Origin: Escherichia coli
GTDB lineage: Bacteria; Pseudomonadota; Gammaproteobacteria; Enterobacterales; Enterobacteriaceae
DNA: 64,000 nucleotides
Reading direction: 5' to 3' (one strand)
Assembly (NCBI RefSeq): GCF_016903815.1
Contig: NZ_CP069972.1
The notes under the pieces are model-generated. The model was not told the origin of the DNA and did no database searches. It saw nothing but the letters and a program-made list of their open reading frames with translations. This document shows positions 6,021 to 49,058 of this stretch, in pieces. A program made the translations under genes and the position numbers. The stretch's first letter is position 1, and every line of letters begins with the position of its first letter.

Positions 6021-6128
6021 TCAGTCGACAAGTTCCCGGATCAGTTCCAGAACAGCAATCAGCGCGTTTGCAACGGCAACTACTGCCCTGAGAACGATGA
6101 TTAACAGATTAATCATCCGCTTCTCCAT
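6021..6128 (-). CDS. Small hydrophobic peptide (35 aa), DinQ/TisB-like type I toxin candidate
   Basis: ATG at 6128-6126 to TGA at 6023-6021 encodes MEKRMINLLIIVLRAVVAVANALIAVLELIRELVD, one amphipathic helix; weak SD (GGTGA 12 nt upstream); too short for the ORF track. Confidence 0.45.
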   Translation of the reverse strand: MEKRMINLLIIVLRAVVAVANALIAVLELIRELVD

Positions 6129-6187: not shown

Positions 6188-6211
6188 GTTAGTTGAAAAG
6201 AGACTTCCTCC
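6188..6211 (-). promoter_or_regulatory. Predicted sRNA-binding site upstream of the toxin ORF
   Basis: 24-nt segment whose reverse complement (GGAGGAAGUCUCUUUUCAACUAAC) pairs with the 5' end of the sRNA at 6375-6398 with one G-U wobble; lies 61-84 nt upstream of the toxin ATG. Confidence 0.4.
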
Positions 6212-6339
6212 TGCCAGAGCACTGAACACAGCACCACCTGTTTGTTCAGCCAGGACTTAAAATCTTGCATCCATAGTCCCGATGGATATCACGGCAGAAG
6301 TGTCGCCAGACAGAGCTAACCTGCGGATTATAAGGATGG

Positions 6340-6374: not shown

Positions 6375-6461
6375 GTTAGTTGAAAAGAGATTTCCTCCGG
6401 TCAGGGCCACCCACTCTGTAACGGAACAGTAAAAAAACCGACCTCACCAGTCGGTTTTTTT
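6375..6461 (+). ncRNA. Predicted ~86-nt sRNA, candidate type I antitoxin
   Basis: Starts at the 24-nt repeat GTTAGTTGAAAAGAGATTTCCTCC and ends at an intrinsic terminator (ACCGAC-loop-GTCGGT plus T7 at 6437-6461); no ORF. Confidence 0.5.
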
Positions 6462-6614
6462 ACATCTGTTGTTTCTCAAAATCCGTCCGACATGCCCGTC
6501 ACACCGGGGAAACTCATGCTCTGAATCAGAACCAACCATCTCAACTTTGCCGTCTCCTGAAAAAACTGGCACATTCAGTTCGATAACTACCCATAAATAC
6601 AGAGAGAAAATCCG

Positions 6615-6866
6615 ATGTCAGAAAAGTGGAGTAAAGAATTCGACTCTTGCTTTCAGGTGGGGAGCATAGAAGAAATTGCAGATGCTCTCGAGAAACGCAG
6701 CGGAAGCGAGGAAAATGCGTTAGCCATGCTGGCAATGACAGCCTTCACACTCATGACCCGACGTGGTATCTGCGAAATGCAGAACGTGGCCCCCGATGGC
6801 AAAGGCATTCGGCTGGAGCTAATCGGCTTCAGGGAAAATGAAACAATACCGGATACGCTTCATTGA
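6615..6866 (+). CDS. Hypothetical protein (83 aa)
   Basis: ATG with GAGAGA upstream; followed by hairpin GCGGCGGCAG/CTGCCGCCG at 6905-6928; no recognised domain. Confidence 0.4.
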   Translation: MSEKWSKEFDSCFQVGSIEEIADALEKRSGSEENALAMLAMTAFTLMTRRGICEMQNVAPDGKGIRLELIGFRENETIPDTLH

Positions 6867-6904
6867 AGAAGAAAGGGCGCAATGAGGTCAGCCTTCGCAA
6901 CAAA

Positions 6905-6935
6905 GCGGCGGCAGAAAACCTGCCGCCGTGTTGCC
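6905..6935 (+). terminator. Terminator-like hairpin after the 83-aa ORF
   Basis: 9-10 bp GC stem with AAAAC loop followed by a U-rich tract. Confidence 0.4.
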
Positions 6936-7112
6936 CGTTAACGTTTAACTTCGTAGGCTAACGTTGCCACAAGCACTGTGTTTCCCTGCTGGAGCCGGAG
7001 TCCGCAAAGCGAATCCCTCACCATCCAGACAAAACACAGAATCGTCACACAGATGACGATTAACATCATTAAAAACGTTCGCTGTGGCATCATAGCCCCT
7101 CCATTGCCTTAC

Positions 7113-7206
7113 GGCGGTTATCGGGCTACTATAATGTTGTCTAGGCATTACAGTAGAGCCCTTGGTTGATTGATAAAAAAATCTCCAGGGGCTTTCTGCT
7201 GTATAC
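7113..7206. repeat. 85-bp direct repeat copy 1 with internal imperfect palindrome
   Basis: CGGGCTACTATAATG...CATTACAGTAGAGCCC TTGGTTGATTGA...CTCCAGGGGCTTTCTGCTGTATA; near-identical to 7421-7500. Confidence 0.6.
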
Positions 7207-7420
7207 CGTCCACAAAACGCTTTCGGCATACAGCCTCAAGCGCCCGCAGCTATTCTAACGACTTTCGTATCGGTAACAATCCTTTTAACCAGCCCCACAC
7301 ATCTTTCGGACATGGTGAGTACAAAAGGCTGCGCTCTCGAACATTTGACATTGAAAATGATTCAGGTGACAGCCTGAATGTAGCAGGAGTCCCCGTCCTT
7401 CTGGCATAGAAGATGTCAAC

Positions 7421-7500
7421 GGGCTACTATAATGTCGTTCACGCATTACAGTAGAGCCCTTGGTTGATTGACAAAAATCTCCAGGGGCTTTCTGCTGTAT
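7421..7500. repeat. 85-bp direct repeat copy 2, about 150 bp upstream of the RHH-HTH gene
   Basis: Near-identical to 7113-7206, a few substitutions and one short indel. Confidence 0.6.
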
Positions 7501-7658
7501 ATGGTTTAGTTAACAAAGAGAGCCAGTGTTCCACTGAGCAAAACCAGTAGCTATTCATGCTTACAATTATCTTCTCCATATCTGAAATAACTCAAACAGC
7601 CCAATAGAAACATATTGTTACATCTAAGATCTTGAAAAGACCTCTTTGAGAAATCAAT

Positions 7659-8645
7659 ATGAGATCACGGTATGTTGATAGGATAATATATATGAAGAAA
7701 CTATTGATTCGATTAATACCTGATGCAATATATGAGGCTCTGGAAAAGACAGCTCTGCATTCTGAACGCTCCCTGGAAGCACAGGCCAGATATATCCTTA
7801 GTTGCTCCGTAGATAATGAAAAACAATTAACTGGTGGTGAACGCTATCAAAGAGAAATAACCGCGCGTCTTAATCAAGCGTTATCAGAAGCTAATGAGGT
7901 CATAACAGCCATTAATCTTGTTCCCGCAAGAATTGCAGAACAATTAGGCCATCATGACGCCATAGAATCCGAAAATTGGTTCACCGGAAATGCTGTTCCT
8001 AGCTTTACAGAGCTTGACGAATTAAGCGATATCTTTGGATGCTCTCCAGATTGGTTAAAGTTTGGCGAAAATGTACCTTATCCAAAGAGTTCTAAAGGAA
8101 GGATAAACTGGAATCGTGGCGGAGAAAAAGATATCGATGCACTTTTAGAGCCTGACAACAAAGGTCGTAAAGTCTCATCTATTCATATTTTCAGGGTAAA
8201 TGAATCTGGCAATATACTAATACTGAGAGAATTTGAAAACAGCATAACTACAGATTTTTTCTCAACAAACCTTTACTTATCAGACAAAGAAAAAATAGGA
8301 CAGGGCGGATTCCACGACCTGGTCGATTTCCTTGTAATTTTACAATCCCTTTATTTAAAATATATAAATAGCAATCTGTTAGTGAAAAGCTATAACATTA
8401 GCCAATATGTACTGGATTCCTGTTATAAGAGCGGAGAAAAGCACCCCATAACTATATGTAGTGCAGGTGAGACAAGTACCTGGTGGGAAGACATATGGCA
8501 TGAAGACATGATAGCTCAATCGAGGAATAATGAGTCCTACTTCTGGGATGGTGACAAACCTCTTATTGATAGCCTTCATAAAGAACTTCAAAAAAATAAC
8601 AGATTAAAGCCAAACAGTGAGTTAGATATGCCACTAATTGGTTAA
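7659..8645 (+). CDS. Putative regulator: N-terminal ribbon-helix-helix, central XRE-type HTH, unknown ~190-aa C-terminal domain (328 aa)
   Basis: MKKLLIRLIPDAIYEALEKTALHSERSLEAQARYIL is RHH-like; NAVPSFTELDELSDIFGCSPDWLKFGE is HTH_XRE-like; low GC; alternative start at 7692. Confidence 0.5.
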   Translation: MRSRYVDRIIYMKKLLIRLIPDAIYEALEKTALHSERSLEAQARYILSCSVDNEKQLTGGERYQREITARLNQALSEANEVITAINLVPARIAEQLGHHDAIESENWFTGNAVPSFTELDELSDIFGCSPDWLKFGENVPYPKSSKGRINWNRGGEKDIDALLEPDNKGRKVSSIHIFRVNESGNILILREFENSITTDFFSTNLYLSDKEKIGQGGFHDLVDFLVILQSLYLKYINSNLLVKSYNISQYVLDSCYKSGEKHPITICSAGETSTWWEDIWHEDMIAQSRNNESYFWDGDKPLIDSLHKELQKNNRLKPNSELDMPLIG

Positions 8646-8862
8646 ACACCAATTAAAGATTATCTAGCTAAAACAACATCGTACACGCATACTGCAAAGC
8701 CCTTGGTGAGTTAATAGAAGAATTACTAAGGGCTTATAAAAAATATATACCCCCACATTGGTGACACATTAAAATATTTTTTGTTGATGTGTTACCAGCC
8801 TGACCCAAAAACAATTTTTAATCTTTCCGTTCGATTTAAATTCCAGAAATGGAGACTTTGTC

Positions 8863-10071
8863 ATGTCTTACAATCGACAGCCTGTCGCAGAAGATCCTAT
8901 GCAGATATGGGGCGCTGTTGGTGTCCTTCTTATCCTGCTGCTATTCGTCATATGGTTATTCTTGCCGGAAGTGGTTTACACCAGCTGCCTGATTCTTCAT
9001 ACCTTATGGGGACTGGTCGACTGGGGACCATTTCATAACTATGCAGCACCACGATACAACCTGCTTGCCATGACCGGTAACAACGCCGCCAACATAAGCT
9101 ATAGCCAGTGGGTTAACGTCATGGAACAGACCATAGGTATTCTGTGGATGTACCTCTTACCTGTGACACTCTGGTGTTTGTGGGAATGGTATCAACATCC
9201 GGGACAAAGCCGTTTCACCCGCAGACCAGTAGATATTACCCGACTGCCACACATCTTTGCTTCGTTATCCCCTGCTATCGCCCCTGTACTGGCAGATGGT
9301 GATCCGAAAAAACTCTTTCATGGTGGTAAACGACCTGAACGGCGGGTTGCTCTCACCCCGGAAGCATTTGTCGAACAGCATACTCTCATCACCAATATGC
9401 AGCTCGATGTTGCAGCTGCAAGACGATGTTTCATGGCCCAGTTGGGTAAACCTTTAACGTCCTGGAAAGACATGGCACCACATGAAAAAGCGCTCTTTGC
9501 CATATTTGGCCTTCAGTATTTCCTGGATGATCGGAAGGCAGCATTAAAGCTCATGGATACACTGAACCTCTCATGCAGAATTAAAAGCAAACGGGACAGC
9601 GGGAAATTCTGTACCCCTGTTTATTCATTGGCCAAATCAGCTTTCCAGAGCGTGATTAAAAGCAACGGAGCACAGCAATGGCTGAAACAACATCGCTACG
9701 TCCGCAGTGGGCTGGTCTGGCTGTATGCACATGACCTGCGGCTTACGCCACCCAACTGGATTTGGCTGAAAGGCGTGGACAGAACGCTGTTTTATGCATT
9801 ACACCGCGCCAATACCACGAAAGGATTTATTGAAGGCGCTGGCGTGGTGGCCGTTGCACGTGCAGAGGCCGAAGCCATGCGTTTTGGTCTTCCCTGCCCT
9901 GAACCCTGTGTTGATGAAGCGGTGGAAGGCTTACGGCGGGATATGCTCAGTCTCGGTCTTATCTGGGATGAACCACAACCAGATCGCGACCGGAAACGCC
10001 GCATCCTGACCAACTGGTCCCTCACCGACGACATCCTGCCCCGCACACCTGCTACAGACAACGAATTCTGA
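8863..10071 (+). CDS. trbA: TrbA-like conjugal transfer protein (402 aa)
   Basis: RBS GGAGA; N-terminal TM segment; first of three co-oriented genes between excA island and nikB, matching R64 trbABC order and sizes (recollection). Confidence 0.6.
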   Translation: MSYNRQPVAEDPMQIWGAVGVLLILLLFVIWLFLPEVVYTSCLILHTLWGLVDWGPFHNYAAPRYNLLAMTGNNAANISYSQWVNVMEQTIGILWMYLLPVTLWCLWEWYQHPGQSRFTRRPVDITRLPHIFASLSPAIAPVLADGDPKKLFHGGKRPERRVALTPEAFVEQHTLITNMQLDVAAARRCFMAQLGKPLTSWKDMAPHEKALFAIFGLQYFLDDRKAALKLMDTLNLSCRIKSKRDSGKFCTPVYSLAKSAFQSVIKSNGAQQWLKQHRYVRSGLVWLYAHDLRLTPPNWIWLKGVDRTLFYALHRANTTKGFIEGAGVVAVARAEAEAMRFGLPCPEPCVDEAVEGLRRDMLSLGLIWDEPQPDRDRKRRILTNWSLTDDILPRTPATDNEF

Positions 10072-28316: not shown

Positions 28317-30650
28317 GTGCGACAGGAAGTCGCTTAACGTATTGTTTTACATTGATAAAACCAGCTATCCCATTAGCTGTAGCCTACCGGGACAGGCGTT
28401 GCCGGCAACGGCGGGGTCTGAAGCTCCCGGGACAACGAGAGCCGGGCGTCAGCCCGGGTAATGCCCCGTGAGGGGCTTTACCTTGCTGCAAGCATCATGC
28501 GGCAGGAGAGCAAGGCTGGTCAGAAGGGTTAACACATGTGAACTGTTGATAAACACCGTTATCGGCAACAGGCCAAAGATGCTGACAGGCCTGAACCAAA
28601 AGGTACGGGGTCCGGTTGCTACCTCGCGCACAGGGAGCACATGGGCGCAGAGACCCCCGGTGAAGAGACAGAACCCGCCCTGACCCTCTGTATGTTAAGC
28701 GGAACCTGGTAAACCCGTATCGCTGCCTCACAGGCAGGTGAACCGCAAGGAACACTGTTAGCGGTGCGGGCATAGGAGGACGGAAAAAGCGAATGCCCGG
28801 CTGTAATAACCGGGATACGGGGCAGGTTCCCCGACGCGAAAGCGGGCAGACTTCCGTCTGGTCTTTAATTGCATGAAAAGCTGTAAAGCAGTCAAAAGGA
28901 TATCAGCGAGATGAATACACACATCAGTGTGTCCACGATACCCCACCCGACAGGCTGGCACACCATAAACTGGAAAGCATGCCATGCCCGGGTGCGAAAG
29001 CTACAGTTACGGATTGCAAAGGCAACCCGACAGCAACAATGGCGGCAGGTCAGAGAACTACAGCGCATCCTCACCCGCTCATTCTCCGGCAAAGCCGTGG
29101 CTGTCAGGCGTGTAACTGAAAATACCGGTAAAAGGACACCCGGTATTGACGGAAAAATATGGCACACACCGAAGGAGAAATGGGAAGGAATATGCAGCCT
29201 GAATCTGTGTGGTTACAGGCCACAGCCACTACGGCGAATACATATCCCAAAATCAAACGGCAAAACGCGACCGCTGGGCATACCCACAATGAGGGACCGG
29301 GCCATGCAGGCACTGTGGCTGCTGGCTCTGGAACCCGTATCCGAGACCACTGCTGACCATAACAGCTATGGTTTCAGACCAATGCGCAGCACGCATGACG
29401 CCATTGAGTCCATTTTTCTGCGGATGAGCCAGAAAGTATCGCCCAAATGGATACTGGAGGGCGATATTAAAGGGTGCTTCGATAACATCAGCCATGACTG
29501 GCTGCTTTCCCATATTCCGATGGACAGGAGACTGCTTAAAAAATGGTTGAAAGCAGGTTACATGGAAAGAGGCGTGTTTAACCATACGAACAGCGGGACA
29601 CCGCAGGGAGGCATCATATCCCCTGTTCTCGCCAACATGGCTCTGGACGGACTGGAGAAGGAACTGATGCAAACGTTCAGGAAAAGTGGTTATCACAGTG
29701 CAAAGCACCAGGTGAATTATGTGAGATATGCTGATGATTTCATCTGTTCAGGCAGCTCCCGTGAATTGCTGGAAAATGAGGTCAGACCACTGATTGCAGC
29801 TTTCATGCGCGAACGAGGGCTGGAACTGTCGGAAGAAAAAACAGCGATCACACATATAGATAAAGGCTTCGACTTTTTAGGGCAGAACGTCAGGAAGTAC
29901 AACGGTAAAATGCTGATTAAACCGTCGAAGAAAAACCTGAAGAACTTCCTCTGTAAAGTCAGAGAAATAATTAAACGCAATCCGACGCTCCCGGCATGGA
30001 AACTGATAGGCCAGCTAAACCCGGTGATCCGGGGATGGGCTACCTATCACCGACACGTCGTGGCGAAAGAAACATTTAATTATGTCGACACCCAAATCTG
30101 GCGAGCTATATGGCGATGGTGTGTAAGACGGCATCCCCGGAAAGGATTGCGGTGGATCGCCGGACGATACTTCTCCTTTGAAGGCAGGCGCTGGATCTTT
30201 AAAGCCATAACCCCGGAAGGGAAAATTCTGACACTCTTCCGGGCAATGGAAACACCGATAAAGCGCCATATAAAAATCAAAGGCGAAGCAACACCATACA
30301 CCCCCGGAATGGAAATCTACTTTGAACGTCGTCTGGATCTAATCTGGAAAGGCAAATCAAAGAAGATGAAGACAGTAGTTCAACTCTGGAAGAGGCAGGG
30401 GAAACACTGTCCGCAGTGCGGACAACTCATAACCAACCAGACCGGATGGAATATACATCACCGGATCAGGAAAGTTATGGGCGGCAGTGACGAACTGACC
30501 AATCTCGAGTTGTTACATCCGAACTGCCACCGACAGTTACACAGCAGGGAAGCCGGTGCTCACCGAAAGCACTTATAAAGGCTTGAGCGGAGTGCGGGGA
30601 AACTCGCACGCTCCGTTCTTAGGGGGCGGCGGCGCAGCAATGTGCCGCTG
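28317..30650 (+). mobile_element. Group II intron (about 2.3 kb) with intron-encoded RT/maturase/HNH protein
   Basis: 5' GTGCG at 28317; about 590 nt of upstream structured RNA; ORF in domain IV; domain V hairpin GAGCGGAGTGCGGGGAAACTCGCACGCTCCGTTC at 30585-30618; 3' end approximate. Confidence 0.75.
28911..30578 (+). CDS. Group II intron-encoded protein: reverse transcriptase, maturase, HNH endonuclease (555 aa)
   Basis: RT motifs (GIDG, YADD) and C-terminal Cys/His HNH segment (CPQCGQ...HHRIRKVMGGSD...HPNCH). Confidence 0.85.
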   Translation: MNTHISVSTIPHPTGWHTINWKACHARVRKLQLRIAKATRQQQWRQVRELQRILTRSFSGKAVAVRRVTENTGKRTPGIDGKIWHTPKEKWEGICSLNLCGYRPQPLRRIHIPKSNGKTRPLGIPTMRDRAMQALWLLALEPVSETTADHNSYGFRPMRSTHDAIESIFLRMSQKVSPKWILEGDIKGCFDNISHDWLLSHIPMDRRLLKKWLKAGYMERGVFNHTNSGTPQGGIISPVLANMALDGLEKELMQTFRKSGYHSAKHQVNYVRYADDFICSGSSRELLENEVRPLIAAFMRERGLELSEEKTAITHIDKGFDFLGQNVRKYNGKMLIKPSKKNLKNFLCKVREIIKRNPTLPAWKLIGQLNPVIRGWATYHRHVVAKETFNYVDTQIWRAIWRWCVRRHPRKGLRWIAGRYFSFEGRRWIFKAITPEGKILTLFRAMETPIKRHIKIKGEATPYTPGMEIYFERRLDLIWKGKSKKMKTVVQLWKRQGKHCPQCGQLITNQTGWNIHHRIRKVMGGSDELTNLELLHPNCHRQLHSREAGAHRKHL

Positions 30651-30856
30651 CTACCCGACCAATAAAAGACAGCCAGAAACGGTGACAGTGTCACGGAATA
30701 TCACACCTGTTCCCTGCATACAGCCATACACTACCTTCTGACCGGAAAGCCGGGCCGGCAGCGCCGCAGGCGCTGCACCCCGCGTTTCCGGCAGGCGTCA
30801 GCCTGCCAGGGGTTTTCGCGCGGGCTGACAGGCGGCCTCCACCGCCTGCCCCTGTA

Positions 30857-47905: not shown

Positions 47906-47982
47906 AAGCTGTCGCTTATGGCGGAGCGATTGTGCCGTGTATTTATACACTGCACAGGGTTGAATCTCTGGTACGGTTTCAT
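47893..47982 (-). CDS. repY: Leader peptide RepY (29 aa)
   Basis: ATG at 47982 to TGA at 47893 encodes MKPYQRFNPVQCINTRHNRSAISDSLWQV; stop overlaps repZ start region. Confidence 0.65.
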   Translation of the reverse strand: MKPYQRFNPVQCINTRHNRSAISDSLWQV

Positions 47983-47994
47983 TATACTTTACCC

Positions 47995-48070
47995 GTATTC
48001 TGTGAGGCCCCCACTATCTTTCGTCGTTCCGCCAAGTTCGTAAGAAAGATAGTGGGGGTTTTCCTTTTAT
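47995..48070 (+). ncRNA. inc: Inc antisense RNA (about 70 nt) of the repZ replicon
   Basis: Promoter TTGAAT-17-TATACT (47960-47988); 15-bp stem CCCCCACTATCTTTC/GAAAGATAGTGGGGG with loop containing CGCCAA, then T-run; antisense to repZ leader. Confidence 0.6.
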
Positions 48071-49058
48071 GGCTTCCGGAACATCTTCAGTCTTCTGACT
48101 TACTGCCCGTACATGCCATCTCTCCTGAATGCCTTATGGCGCATTCTGCCGTCCGGCTTTCGCCGCTTTGCTCCACAGAGTGCCACCCTCTGCACAGCTA
48201 ATAACAGCCGAAATATACCCGCTTTACGTTAATTTGAAAAGCATTACAACGATCTCTTCTCTTCCAGTGCCTCCTCACTGATACCTCTAATAAGTTAATC
48301 TTGACCTGCGTCAAAAAAATAAAATCTATTTTTAAAAGCAGATTTTTCTGCTTTAGATCTTTCTTTTGGATTAAAAGATCGACTTTTGTCCTACTCACGA
48401 TCATTTATCTTACAACCGATCTACCTAACAGAATAATATTCTGTTTTAATGCAATTAAACGATCTAAATAACCTTTAAAAAATCATTTTGTAGATCATTC
48501 GATCGTAAATAGAATAATTCTTAGATGATAAAACCATTTGTTACACAACCCGCCAATTGTGTAACAACAGCCTCTACAAGAGCATATTTGTTCATATGTT
48601 CGTCAGAACTGCGGATTGTCTGGACGAGGGTCAGACACCGTTTCGTGCATATGGACCAGCATGTTCGAACGCCACAAAGCAGAAGCATCATGCCTGGATC
48701 GCTTCGGCGCGGAGCGTTAAGTTTTGACGCTTTTTTGTATGTTTTTTAAGCTGTTAGTTGACTCGGTGCGTTATACTAAGTACCCTTTACTGGTCACAGG
48801 CAAAACTGTGATCGGGCGTAGGAACCCGCGTAGTCATCGTCGGCGCAGAAGTTAATTTCTTCATTTGGCGTCGTTTTTTGCCATACCATAAAGACAGGAA
48901 CTTGTATTTCTTGTCGTCATCTATGGTAGCTCAGGCGGGGCAGGCATTAGCCTGGCCGGTTTCCGATGACGCCGGTATTCCTACCCCCGTCTGGGCTATC
49001 ACCAATGAGCGTAGGAACTCGGTGATAGCGTTTTTAGTTGTCATCGGAGACCGTTGCT

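Follow-up and report, generated by a model that had tools for sequence, protein, structure and literature searches.

Sok-type repeats and a solitary ribbon-helix-helix/helix-turn-helix gene in a variable cargo slot of an IncI1 plasmid

What are the two near-identical repeats that precede a gene for a putative DNA-binding protein in an Escherichia coli plasmid, and does that protein have anything to do with them? The question arose from a reading of a 64,000-nucleotide stretch of DNA (RefSeq assembly GCF_016903815.1, contig NZ_CP069972.1; hereafter the window), in which the repeats were proposed to be operators, small-RNA promoters or recombination sites, and the gene to encode an uncharacterised cargo function (the original prediction). 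The window comes from an IncI1 conjugative plasmid, and the locus occupies the spacer that separates pnd from the trbABC transfer genes. We are highly confident that the repeats derive from hok/sok-type (pnd) loci. The spacer is a variable cargo slot, which is found empty, occupied by finQ or occupied by the cassette described here. The explanation as a whole, in which the identity of the repeats is combined with a model of cassette exchange and a role for the protein, is one towards which we lean slightly.

Two direct repeats of about 85 bp with an imperfect palindrome are indeed present upstream of the gene, at 7117–7205 (copy 1) and 7415–7501 (copy 2), both on the plus strand. They are 92% identical over 84 nt (BLAST E 2.5e-25), end 454 and 158 bp before the annotated start of the open reading frame (ORF) at 7659, and each contains the palindrome GGGCTACTATAATG-9-CATTACAGTAGAGCCC. 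On the minus strand, positions 7088–7245 match Rfam RF01794 ('sok') over the full model (positions 1–157) with 134.2 bits (E 8.6e-32), against a gathering score of 59. As built, RF01794 describes the leader of a hok-type mRNA, its final three positions being the AUG of the toxin, and the match corresponds to the 5' leader of the pnd mRNA with its antisense target stem-loop. The palindrome coincides with model positions 84–125, a long, conserved stem-loop that is the antisense target hairpin. Antisense to this match, copy 1 contains a TATAAT box, a 5' tail and a long hairpin: the RNA predicted from 7138–7205 (~65 nt) has an 11-nt free 5' tail followed by the hairpin, with a predicted folding energy of -29.8 kcal/mol (z -5.8). 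This layout is the architecture of the Sok and PndB RNAs, and copy 1 would be transcribed as such an RNA.

The remaining parts of a killer locus surround copy 1. The toxin gene pndA (6938–7093, minus strand) encodes a 51-residue Hok/Gef-family protein that matches the NCBIfam HokA model (E 3.2e-19) and the Hok family (E 1.1e-11); at 68.7 bits the HokA match lies under the equivalog cut-off of 89, which places PndA at the level of the family only. Its counterpart in identical plasmids is labelled 'Hok/Gef family protein' by the NCBI Prokaryotic Genome Annotation Pipeline (PGAP). The mok-like leader ORF pndC (6945–7148, minus strand) overlaps pndA and starts within copy 1, its frame being open from 7229. 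The 67-residue form, beginning 'MPRQHYSS' at 7148, has the size of the PndC annotated in pESBL, in which PndC and PndA overlap likewise (PMC4288162). Downstream, an inverted repeat at 6906–6928 (minus strand; 10 pairs, 8 of them GC, then CTTTGTT) forms a terminator-type hairpin at the 3' end of the pnd mRNA and is unchanged in the IncI plasmids ColIb-P9 and pC271. Upstream, the promoter scan gave a candidate pnd promoter, TTGTTA-16-TAGAAT (7252–7279, minus strand), by consensus match only; it falls just inside the conserved backbone, and its -10 element ends 7 nt upstream of RF01794 position 1. The pnd region of the window is 98–100% identical to that of many IncI1 plasmids. From this arrangement, copy 1 appears as the PndB/Sok antisense-RNA gene together with the mRNA target hairpin, an integral part of an intact pndBCA type I toxin-antitoxin (TA) locus.

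In such systems an unstable antisense RNA keeps the leader ORF (mok), and hence the toxin, from being translated, and plasmid-free segregants die (PMC4147584; PMC5330492); post-segregational killing of plasmid-free cells has been described for pnd of IncI1 plasmids (PMC5330492). The same study states that pndB is identical across 125 IncI1 plasmids (PMC5330492). The loop of the pnd target hairpin (7141–7145), which is the extreme 5' end of the predicted PndB RNA, varies between the plasmids that we aligned (CTAGG in the window, TGAGG in pC271, CGAAG in ColIb-P9), and the stems are invariant among the three.

Copy 2 differs from copy 1 at six places. Four are substitutions in the 5' tail; the other two, a substitution and a deletion of 2 nt, affect the loop, and the stems are spared. 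Like copy 1 it has a -10 box, a tail and two intact stems, and its predicted fold is equally good (-29.9 kcal/mol, z -5.9). Its Rfam sok score of 38.4 bits lies under the gathering score, with an 84-nt insertion forced into the alignment, and its homology stops at 7501, short of the mRNA 5' end and promoter. The minus strand of copy 2 holds no Hok ORF; the only ORF, of 53 residues (7285–7446), opens with a PndC-like start 'MRERHYSSPLTSS' and continues into a remnant of an insertion sequence (IS). Copy 2 is best read as not a hok/sok locus in its own right but the Sok-type antisense-RNA gene relic of a second, decayed locus, derived from another hok/sok allele whose toxin gene was lost beside the IS end. 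The restriction of the differences to tail and loop hinted at constraint; we do not claim that copy 2 is upheld by selection, given a stem-breaking change among its alleles (see below).

The remnant itself, 65 bp at 7355–7420 (plus strand), abuts copy 2 and represents the right end of an IS200/IS605-family (tnpA/tnpB-insQ) element. It is 86% identical to the insQ 3' end and element end in the IncI2 plasmid pEC1266-mcr (L012:2501–2566), and the similarity ceases at ...GATGTCAA (TCAA), directly against the first base of copy 2. We found no transposase ORF (tnpA or tnpB) in 7288–7420, and no left end. Because only the right end survives, the stretch is a scar and not a mobile element. In the simplest history, an IS605-type element would have entered another hok/sok locus, at a point immediately upstream of its Sok -10 box; later deletion would have removed most of the IS and the toxin gene of that locus. 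In an intact element, the stretch at 7355–7420 would be part of the scaffold of the TnpB guide RNA, with the adjacent sok sequence as the guide.

A third member of the repeat family, overlooked in the original prediction, lies downstream of the ORF at ~8666–8745 (copy 3, plus strand). It is degenerate, with ~70% similarity (72% in the repeat alignment), and its local alignment score of 31–33 compares with a shuffle mean of 14–15 (sd 2.1–2.3), 0 of 2000 shuffles scoring as well. Its 5' tail (TCGTACACGCA) resembles that of copy 2 and not that of copy 1. The hairpin (~8697–8736) folds at -19.6 kcal/mol (z -3.8) and forms a terminator-like stem where a terminator of the ORF would be expected. Copy 3 aligns in register with the sok copy found downstream of finQ in pC271. 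A further toxin-less relic occurs in ColIb-P9, ~1 kb to the left of pnd (L003:1021–1162; Rfam 67.5 bits), and belongs to the copy 2 lineage (PndC-like 'HYSSPLTSSTPEG'), which indicates that decayed hok/sok copies are scattered over the excA–trbA region of IncI plasmids. The repeats therefore turn out to be fragments of a known kind of element, a hok/sok-type locus, with an IS200/IS605 end adjoining copy 2. Of the three functions first suggested for them, that of small-RNA promoters came nearest, each being a Sok/PndB-type antisense-RNA gene.

The cassette as a whole was delimited by a three-way alignment of the window with ColIb-P9, in which the slot is empty, and pC271, which carries finQ. 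Backbone identity stops after ...AATCCTTTTA at 7287 and returns near AATTTTTAA(T/C)CTTTCCG at ~8813, so that a cassette of ~1.5 kb (7288–8812) replaces ~50 bp of the empty pnd–trbA spacer. Its contents, from left to right, are a 65-bp stretch of unknown origin, then the IS remnant and copy 2, and finally the ORF with copy 3 behind it. Its G+C content is low (0.34–0.43 over 7450–8800, compared with ~0.50 in the flanks). On the right of the slot the backbone resumes with trbA (8863–10071, plus strand) as its first gene, annotated as IncI1-type TrbA. In ColIb-P9, whose slot is empty, ...AACAATCCTTTTAT lies ~100 bp from the trbA start. In pC271 the finQ cassette starts at the same junction; after it comes the whole sok region with the pnd promoter a second time (Rfam 84.6 bits), which runs into the normal sequence upstream of trbA. 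This second copy is the duplication of 173 bp that has been reported with finQ in Salmonella IncI1 plasmids (PMC8004404). A census of the plasmid database PLSDB found finQ in 518 plasmids, the ORF in 103 and the pnd region in ~1950; the slot carries finQ together with the duplicated sok region in ~500 plasmids and the present cassette in ~100.

These arrangements suggest how cargo might be exchanged. The sok copies would act as homology arms. If a donor, circular or plasmid-borne, that bears one sok copy recombined with the resident pnd locus by a single crossover, the cargo would come to lie between direct sok repeats (Campbell-type integration), and the same arrangement would let cassettes be swapped. 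The suggestion follows from the architecture, since cargo flanked by direct repeats of resident sequence is what such a crossover yields, and we regard it as evenly poised between right and wrong. The idea that the repeats are recombination sites thus survives in one form only, that of putative homology arms. Alleles of the ORF are mosaic: relative to pUA1136 (L021), the centre of the gene and 80 bp upstream (7600–8480) differ at ~8% of positions, and the last 150 bp of the ORF (8490–8645), copy 3 and the flanking backbone are nearly identical, which suggests recombination within the cassette.

The ORF extends over 7659–8645 (plus strand) and, in its annotated form, encodes 328 residues (WP_001257838.1), in the low-G+C segment as originally described. 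Translation probably begins in fact at the second ATG (7692), which gives 317 residues (7692–8645): the representative of its sequence cluster has 317 residues and begins MKKLLIRL, and the 33 nt between the two ATGs (7659–7691) vary among alleles in the manner of the upstream non-coding DNA. Compared with the allele of pUA1136 (93% identical), the ratio of nonsynonymous to synonymous substitution rates (dN/dS) is 0.15 overall, with 0.20 in the ribbon-helix-helix (RHH) region, 0.13 in the helix-turn-helix (HTH) region and 0.13 in the C-terminal region, a pattern that marks the gene as real and under purifying selection.

The protein combines three domains, and in this respect the architecture recognised at the outset is borne out. 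Residues 1–45 (7692–7826) form an RHH domain of the FitA/VapB type, which matches Pfam PF22513 (FitA-like_RHH; E 3.1e-6) at residues 15–48 of the 328-residue form, over 34 of the 39 model positions. Across the family, R7, P10 and an ERS.EAE.R (ERS.E..AR) motif are invariant or nearly so, as is typical of the RHH fold. Residues ~76–128 (7917–8075) form an HTH domain of the XRE/lambda-cI type. Profile matches to this region are weak (HTH_3, E 0.062 to a partial model; NCBIfam DicA, E 0.004, well below the cut-off), PHROG repressor families match it with E 5e-5 to 4e-3, and the region has the five helices of a lambda-repressor-like fold.

The remaining ~190 residues (8076–8642) belong to no described family and contain the motifs G.L.IV, T..H.S..G.GG, HPL, WWEDIWD and YW.G. 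The predicted model of this domain is confident and well folded, and has no counterpart in Pfam or the Protein Data Bank (PDB); in particular, it matches no toxin, nuclease, NTPase (nucleoside triphosphatase) or pore-forming family or fold. Conservation analysis of the family showed G78, W139 and W160 of this domain to be invariant and R43, G48, G81, P127, D142 and W144 nearly so, the latter falling in the motifs G.GG, HPL, WWEDIWD and YW.G, with no conserved catalytic residue set, a pattern that looks like a binding or packing surface and not a catalytic centre. A Foldseek search of AFDB50 returned family members whose labels go no further than 'HTH cro/C1', 'Arc-like' or 'plasmid stability protein' and, more weakly, the C-terminal parts of Schlafen/AlbA_2-domain and Mrr-domain proteins (A0A1Y0N2X8, A0A6M5J9Y1; E ~1e-5, template modelling (TM) score 0.57). 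The latter likeness hints that the C-terminal domain may be a module shared with DNA-targeting proteins. A profile search for other architectures of the C-terminal domain gave only RHH-containing family members.

Relatives of the protein are confined to plasmids and to integrative and conjugative elements (ICEs) of Proteobacteria. An exhaustive phmmer search of 1.84 billion cluster representatives found 177 relatives at E <=0.001, 91 of them at <=1e-10; most have 290–350 residues and match the query over most of its length, and the 177 have the domain architecture in common. By tblastn the family occurs in 619 PLSDB plasmids, 401 from Klebsiella and 530 predicted to be conjugative. Among complete E. 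coli genomes, 103 of 5426 carry it, and 102 of the 104 copies are on plasmids. A tblastn search of phage genomes found it in 0 of 50,697, and a phage origin of the ORF was rejected. No neighbouring gene is conserved across the loci that we examined, so that the protein appears to be solitary, and no toxin gene adjoins it in the window or in 8 other genomic contexts. In IncFII plasmids of Klebsiella its neighbours are parM/parR, a recombinase gene, umuDC and relE. Across the Klebsiella branch of ~400 plasmids a 69-residue DUF7706 gene (9052–9261 in L005, 8052–8261 in L023) overlaps its stop codon by 8 nt; the DUF7706 gene is absent from the window and most other branches. In Providencia and one metagenomic plasmid the gene is divergent from a resolvase or parA gene, in Serratia it lies in an ICE between a block of VgrG/type VI secretion system (T6SS) cargo and an operon for a cyclic-oligonucleotide-based anti-phage signalling system (CBASS), and elsewhere it neighbours a type I restriction-modification (R-M) system, IS elements or a PIN gene.

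What might such a protein do? Both of its N-terminal modules would contact specific DNA, and it would bind as a dimer or higher oligomer, since two chains are required to build the sheet of an RHH domain. Oligomerisation, sensing or partner binding would fall to the C-terminal domain; this domain is most likely a sensing or protein-interaction module and not an enzyme, because a conserved set of catalytic residues is lacking and invariant tryptophan and glycine are frequent in it. The gene has no operon partner, occupies the same slot as the fertility inhibitor FinQ and lies near the exclusion gene excA, and for these reasons the protein may act in trans, on rival plasmids or on plasmid or host promoters, in competition between elements or as a regulatory factor. 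We put this role forward tentatively, as a possibility rather than a probability. A bolder form of the proposal, about which we are quite doubtful, is that the ORF is the first of a class of solitary RHH-HTH proteins specific to plasmids and ICEs, whose new C-terminal fold would sense or bind a component of a rival element, making it a new fertility-inhibition or exclusion factor parallel in function to FinQ. In this proposal the sok genes would be portable homology arms with which IncI plasmids swap such competition genes into and out of the pnd–trbA slot, and might supply promoter and terminator parts as well.

Several observations weigh against parts of this explanation. The competition role is drawn from position and neighbourhood, and the protein has no homology to a characterised factor, FinQ included; the weak Foldseek likeness to parts of Mrr and Schlafen proteins fits a role in defence equally. 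The promoter scan gave no convincing sigma-70-like promoter for the ORF in 7501–7690, and the sequences upstream of seven family members yielded no consistent palindromic operator. The homology-arm model is likewise a deduction from architecture, and the left part of the cassette (7288–7419) is not derived from sok, which implies more than one crossover in its history. Copy 2 has a good -10 box and no convincing -35 element, and two allelic variants (L013, L022) carry a stem-breaking G-to-A change at 7484; it may be a dead relic.

Four other explanations were considered, two of them for the repeats. That the repeats are operators bound by the RHH-HTH protein, which would autoregulate its gene or control pnd, is one of the functions first proposed for them, and is favoured by the position of copy 2, 158–190 bp upstream of the ORF, and by the palindrome in both copies; RHH and XRE proteins often bind repeats close to their own genes. 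It is nevertheless very improbable. The repeats belong to the pnd locus, which is far more widespread than the ORF in the PLSDB census, and the palindrome is accounted for by the conserved RNA stem of the Rfam model. Conversely, no similar sequence occurs near family members in Klebsiella plasmids, the Serratia ICE or several metagenomic contigs, and in plasmid p80DF1 the ORF is joined to other DNA leftwards of 7562, with neither copy 1 nor copy 2. A second view is that copy 2 is an active small-RNA gene, either an orphan PndB-like RNA that modulates pndA or another hok homologue or a promoter and attenuating leader for the ORF. The intact TATAAT box and stems, the confinement of all six differences to the tail and loop, which are the specificity-determining parts of Sok-type RNAs, and the failure to find another sigma-70-like promoter between copy 2 and the ORF speak for it. 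We consider it somewhat unlikely: neither the promoter scan nor inspection of the sequence revealed a -35 element, the Rfam score is under threshold and the cognate hok has been lost, and the stem-disrupting substitution at 7484, together with a change 3 nt upstream of the -10 box in L021, suggests relaxed constraint.

The other two concern the protein. It could be a single-gene anti-phage (abortive infection) or anti-plasmid defence, in which the N-terminal modules recognise a target or autoregulate and the C-terminal domain is the effector. Neighbours in other hosts include CBASS, type I R-M, KAP NTPase, AAA_15/21 ATPases and T6SS cargo, the Foldseek likeness is to the C-terminal parts of Mrr-nuclease and Schlafen/AlbA_2 proteins, and IncI1 plasmids alter the phage type of Salmonella (PMC8004404). 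Against this, PADLOC-DB 2.0 gave 0 families for the ORF at E up to 1 (FinQ itself gave a marginal match only, E 0.009), the C-terminal domain has neither a catalytic residue set nor a nuclease, NTPase or pore-forming fold, and many of the neighbourhoods are plasmid maintenance regions, not defence islands; we judge a defence function unlikely. Still less probable, in our estimate, is that the protein is the antitoxin-like autoregulator of a type II TA module, either orphaned or fused, with the C-terminal domain as the toxin or toxin-binding part. The RHH domain is of the type found in FitA/VapB antitoxins, XRE HTH domains are common in antitoxins, the gene is located in plasmid stability regions, and in Klebsiella plasmids the DUF7706 gene overlaps its stop codon. 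That small downstream gene, however, is not kept across the family, neither the window nor most of the loci have a PIN or other toxin gene next to it, typical antitoxins are a third to a quarter as large as this protein, and its C-terminal domain matches no toxin family. Among these readings we retain the regulator or interference factor acting in trans as our working proposal, with the unusual protein standing, as first supposed, as a cargo function: its gene is exchangeable cargo in a variable slot.

Positions 6600–9000 are 100% identical to more than 20 IncI1 plasmids from E. coli and Shigella, pSF-468-2 among them. In these plasmids traY and excA are followed by a HEAT-repeat gene, dqlB, a hypothetical gene, the Hok/Gef gene, a second hypothetical gene (987 bp) and then trbA, trbB and trbC. 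The Rfam PK-repZ pseudoknot at 47918–48066 is consistent with an IncI1 replicon. To the left of pnd lies a second type I TA module, with the DinQ-like toxin gene dqlB (6021–6116, minus strand; annotated in an identical plasmid, L001:3422–3517) and a match to the Rfam AgrB antisense RNA at 6376–6463 (plus strand; 55 bits against a gathering score of 40). The stretches 6188–6220 and 6375–6407 are direct repeats of 33 nt, 88% identical, that probably reflect duplicate antisense genes of the AgrA/AgrB type, and ColIb-P9 has two AgrB matches in its dqlB region. Between the dqlB/agrB module and pndA, a conserved hypothetical ORF of 83 residues (6615–6866, plus strand; WP_001291964/5) is found in every IncI plasmid that we examined and has no NCBIfam match. 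Farther away, Rfam matches to group II intron domains on the plus strand (D1-D4 at 28361–28510, 122 bits; D5-D6 at 30583–30659, 60 bits) indicate that a group II intron of ~2.3 kb is inserted in the plasmid. A match to the C4 antisense RNA (48919–49006, plus strand; 77.5 bits against a gathering score of 45) lies ~1 kb from the repZ pseudoknot; this RNA family is known from the immunity regions of P1/P7-type phages.

The two halves of the locus differ in what they add. The repeats are known biology, the pnd killer system and its decayed copies, and the duplication associated with finQ had already been described. The recurrence of slot cargo bracketed by sok-derived repeats suggests a simple, homology-based exchange of accessory genes between IncI plasmids. 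The protein represents an uncharacterised family with an unmatched domain and an unusual combination of RHH and HTH, and offers a lead in plasmid competition. Literature searches found no mention of WP_001257838 and no paper on RHH+HTH fertility inhibitors, and family members are annotated merely as 'hypothetical' or 'FitA-like RHH'. The ~619 plasmids that carry the family include ~400 from Klebsiella and ~100 IncI plasmids of E. coli, Salmonella and Shigella from clinical and food-animal isolates. Should the protein prove to influence how co-resident plasmids or phages transfer or become established, it would be a new player in plasmid-plasmid conflict among resistance-carrying replicons.

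Compared with known systems, the protein resembles several in part. Its N-terminal ~45 residues share PF22513, the R-x-x-P strand-to-helix transition and the (H)xRSxExExR helix motif with the FitA/VapB antitoxins and the Arc/MetJ repressors; unlike these, it has no adjacent VapC/PIN toxin and adds a second DNA-binding fold and a large extra domain. In comparison with XRE/cI-type repressors (cI, ImmR, ComR/PlcR, CapH), it carries an extra RHH domain before the HTH, its C-terminal module is not an S24 peptidase, tetratricopeptide repeat (TPR) or other known sensor fold, and its family is not found in phage genomes. The IS remnant has in common with IS200/IS605 elements (IS609/insQ-tnpB type) the last ~65 bp, including the subterminal hairpin ATTCAGG-N6-CCTGAAT, and retains this right end only, without tnpA, tnpB or the left end.

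The copy 1 locus corresponds to the pndBCA system of R64 and R483 (IncI1/IncB) in its Hok ORF, overlapping pndC, RF01794 leader, antisense gene and 3' hairpin, whereas copies 2 and 3, both without a hok ORF and the former cut short by the IS remnant, are not functional loci. The closest parallel to the cassette is the finQ insertion of pESBL, pC271 and Salmonella IncI1 plasmids (PMC8004404). The cargo proteins are unrelated (BLASTP best E 8.3), and a relationship of the ORF to FinQ was rejected; only the genomic slot is held in common. The finQ duplication is a clean second copy of ~170–190 bp downstream of the cargo, whereas in the window the flanking copies come from the other sok allele, one of them is degenerate, and the IS remnant and the 65 bp of unassigned sequence lie at the left. 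The two insertions nevertheless occupy the same slot, with left junctions within 1–2 bp of each other, and in both a single low-G+C cargo gene oriented toward trbA is bounded by direct copies of the sok region.

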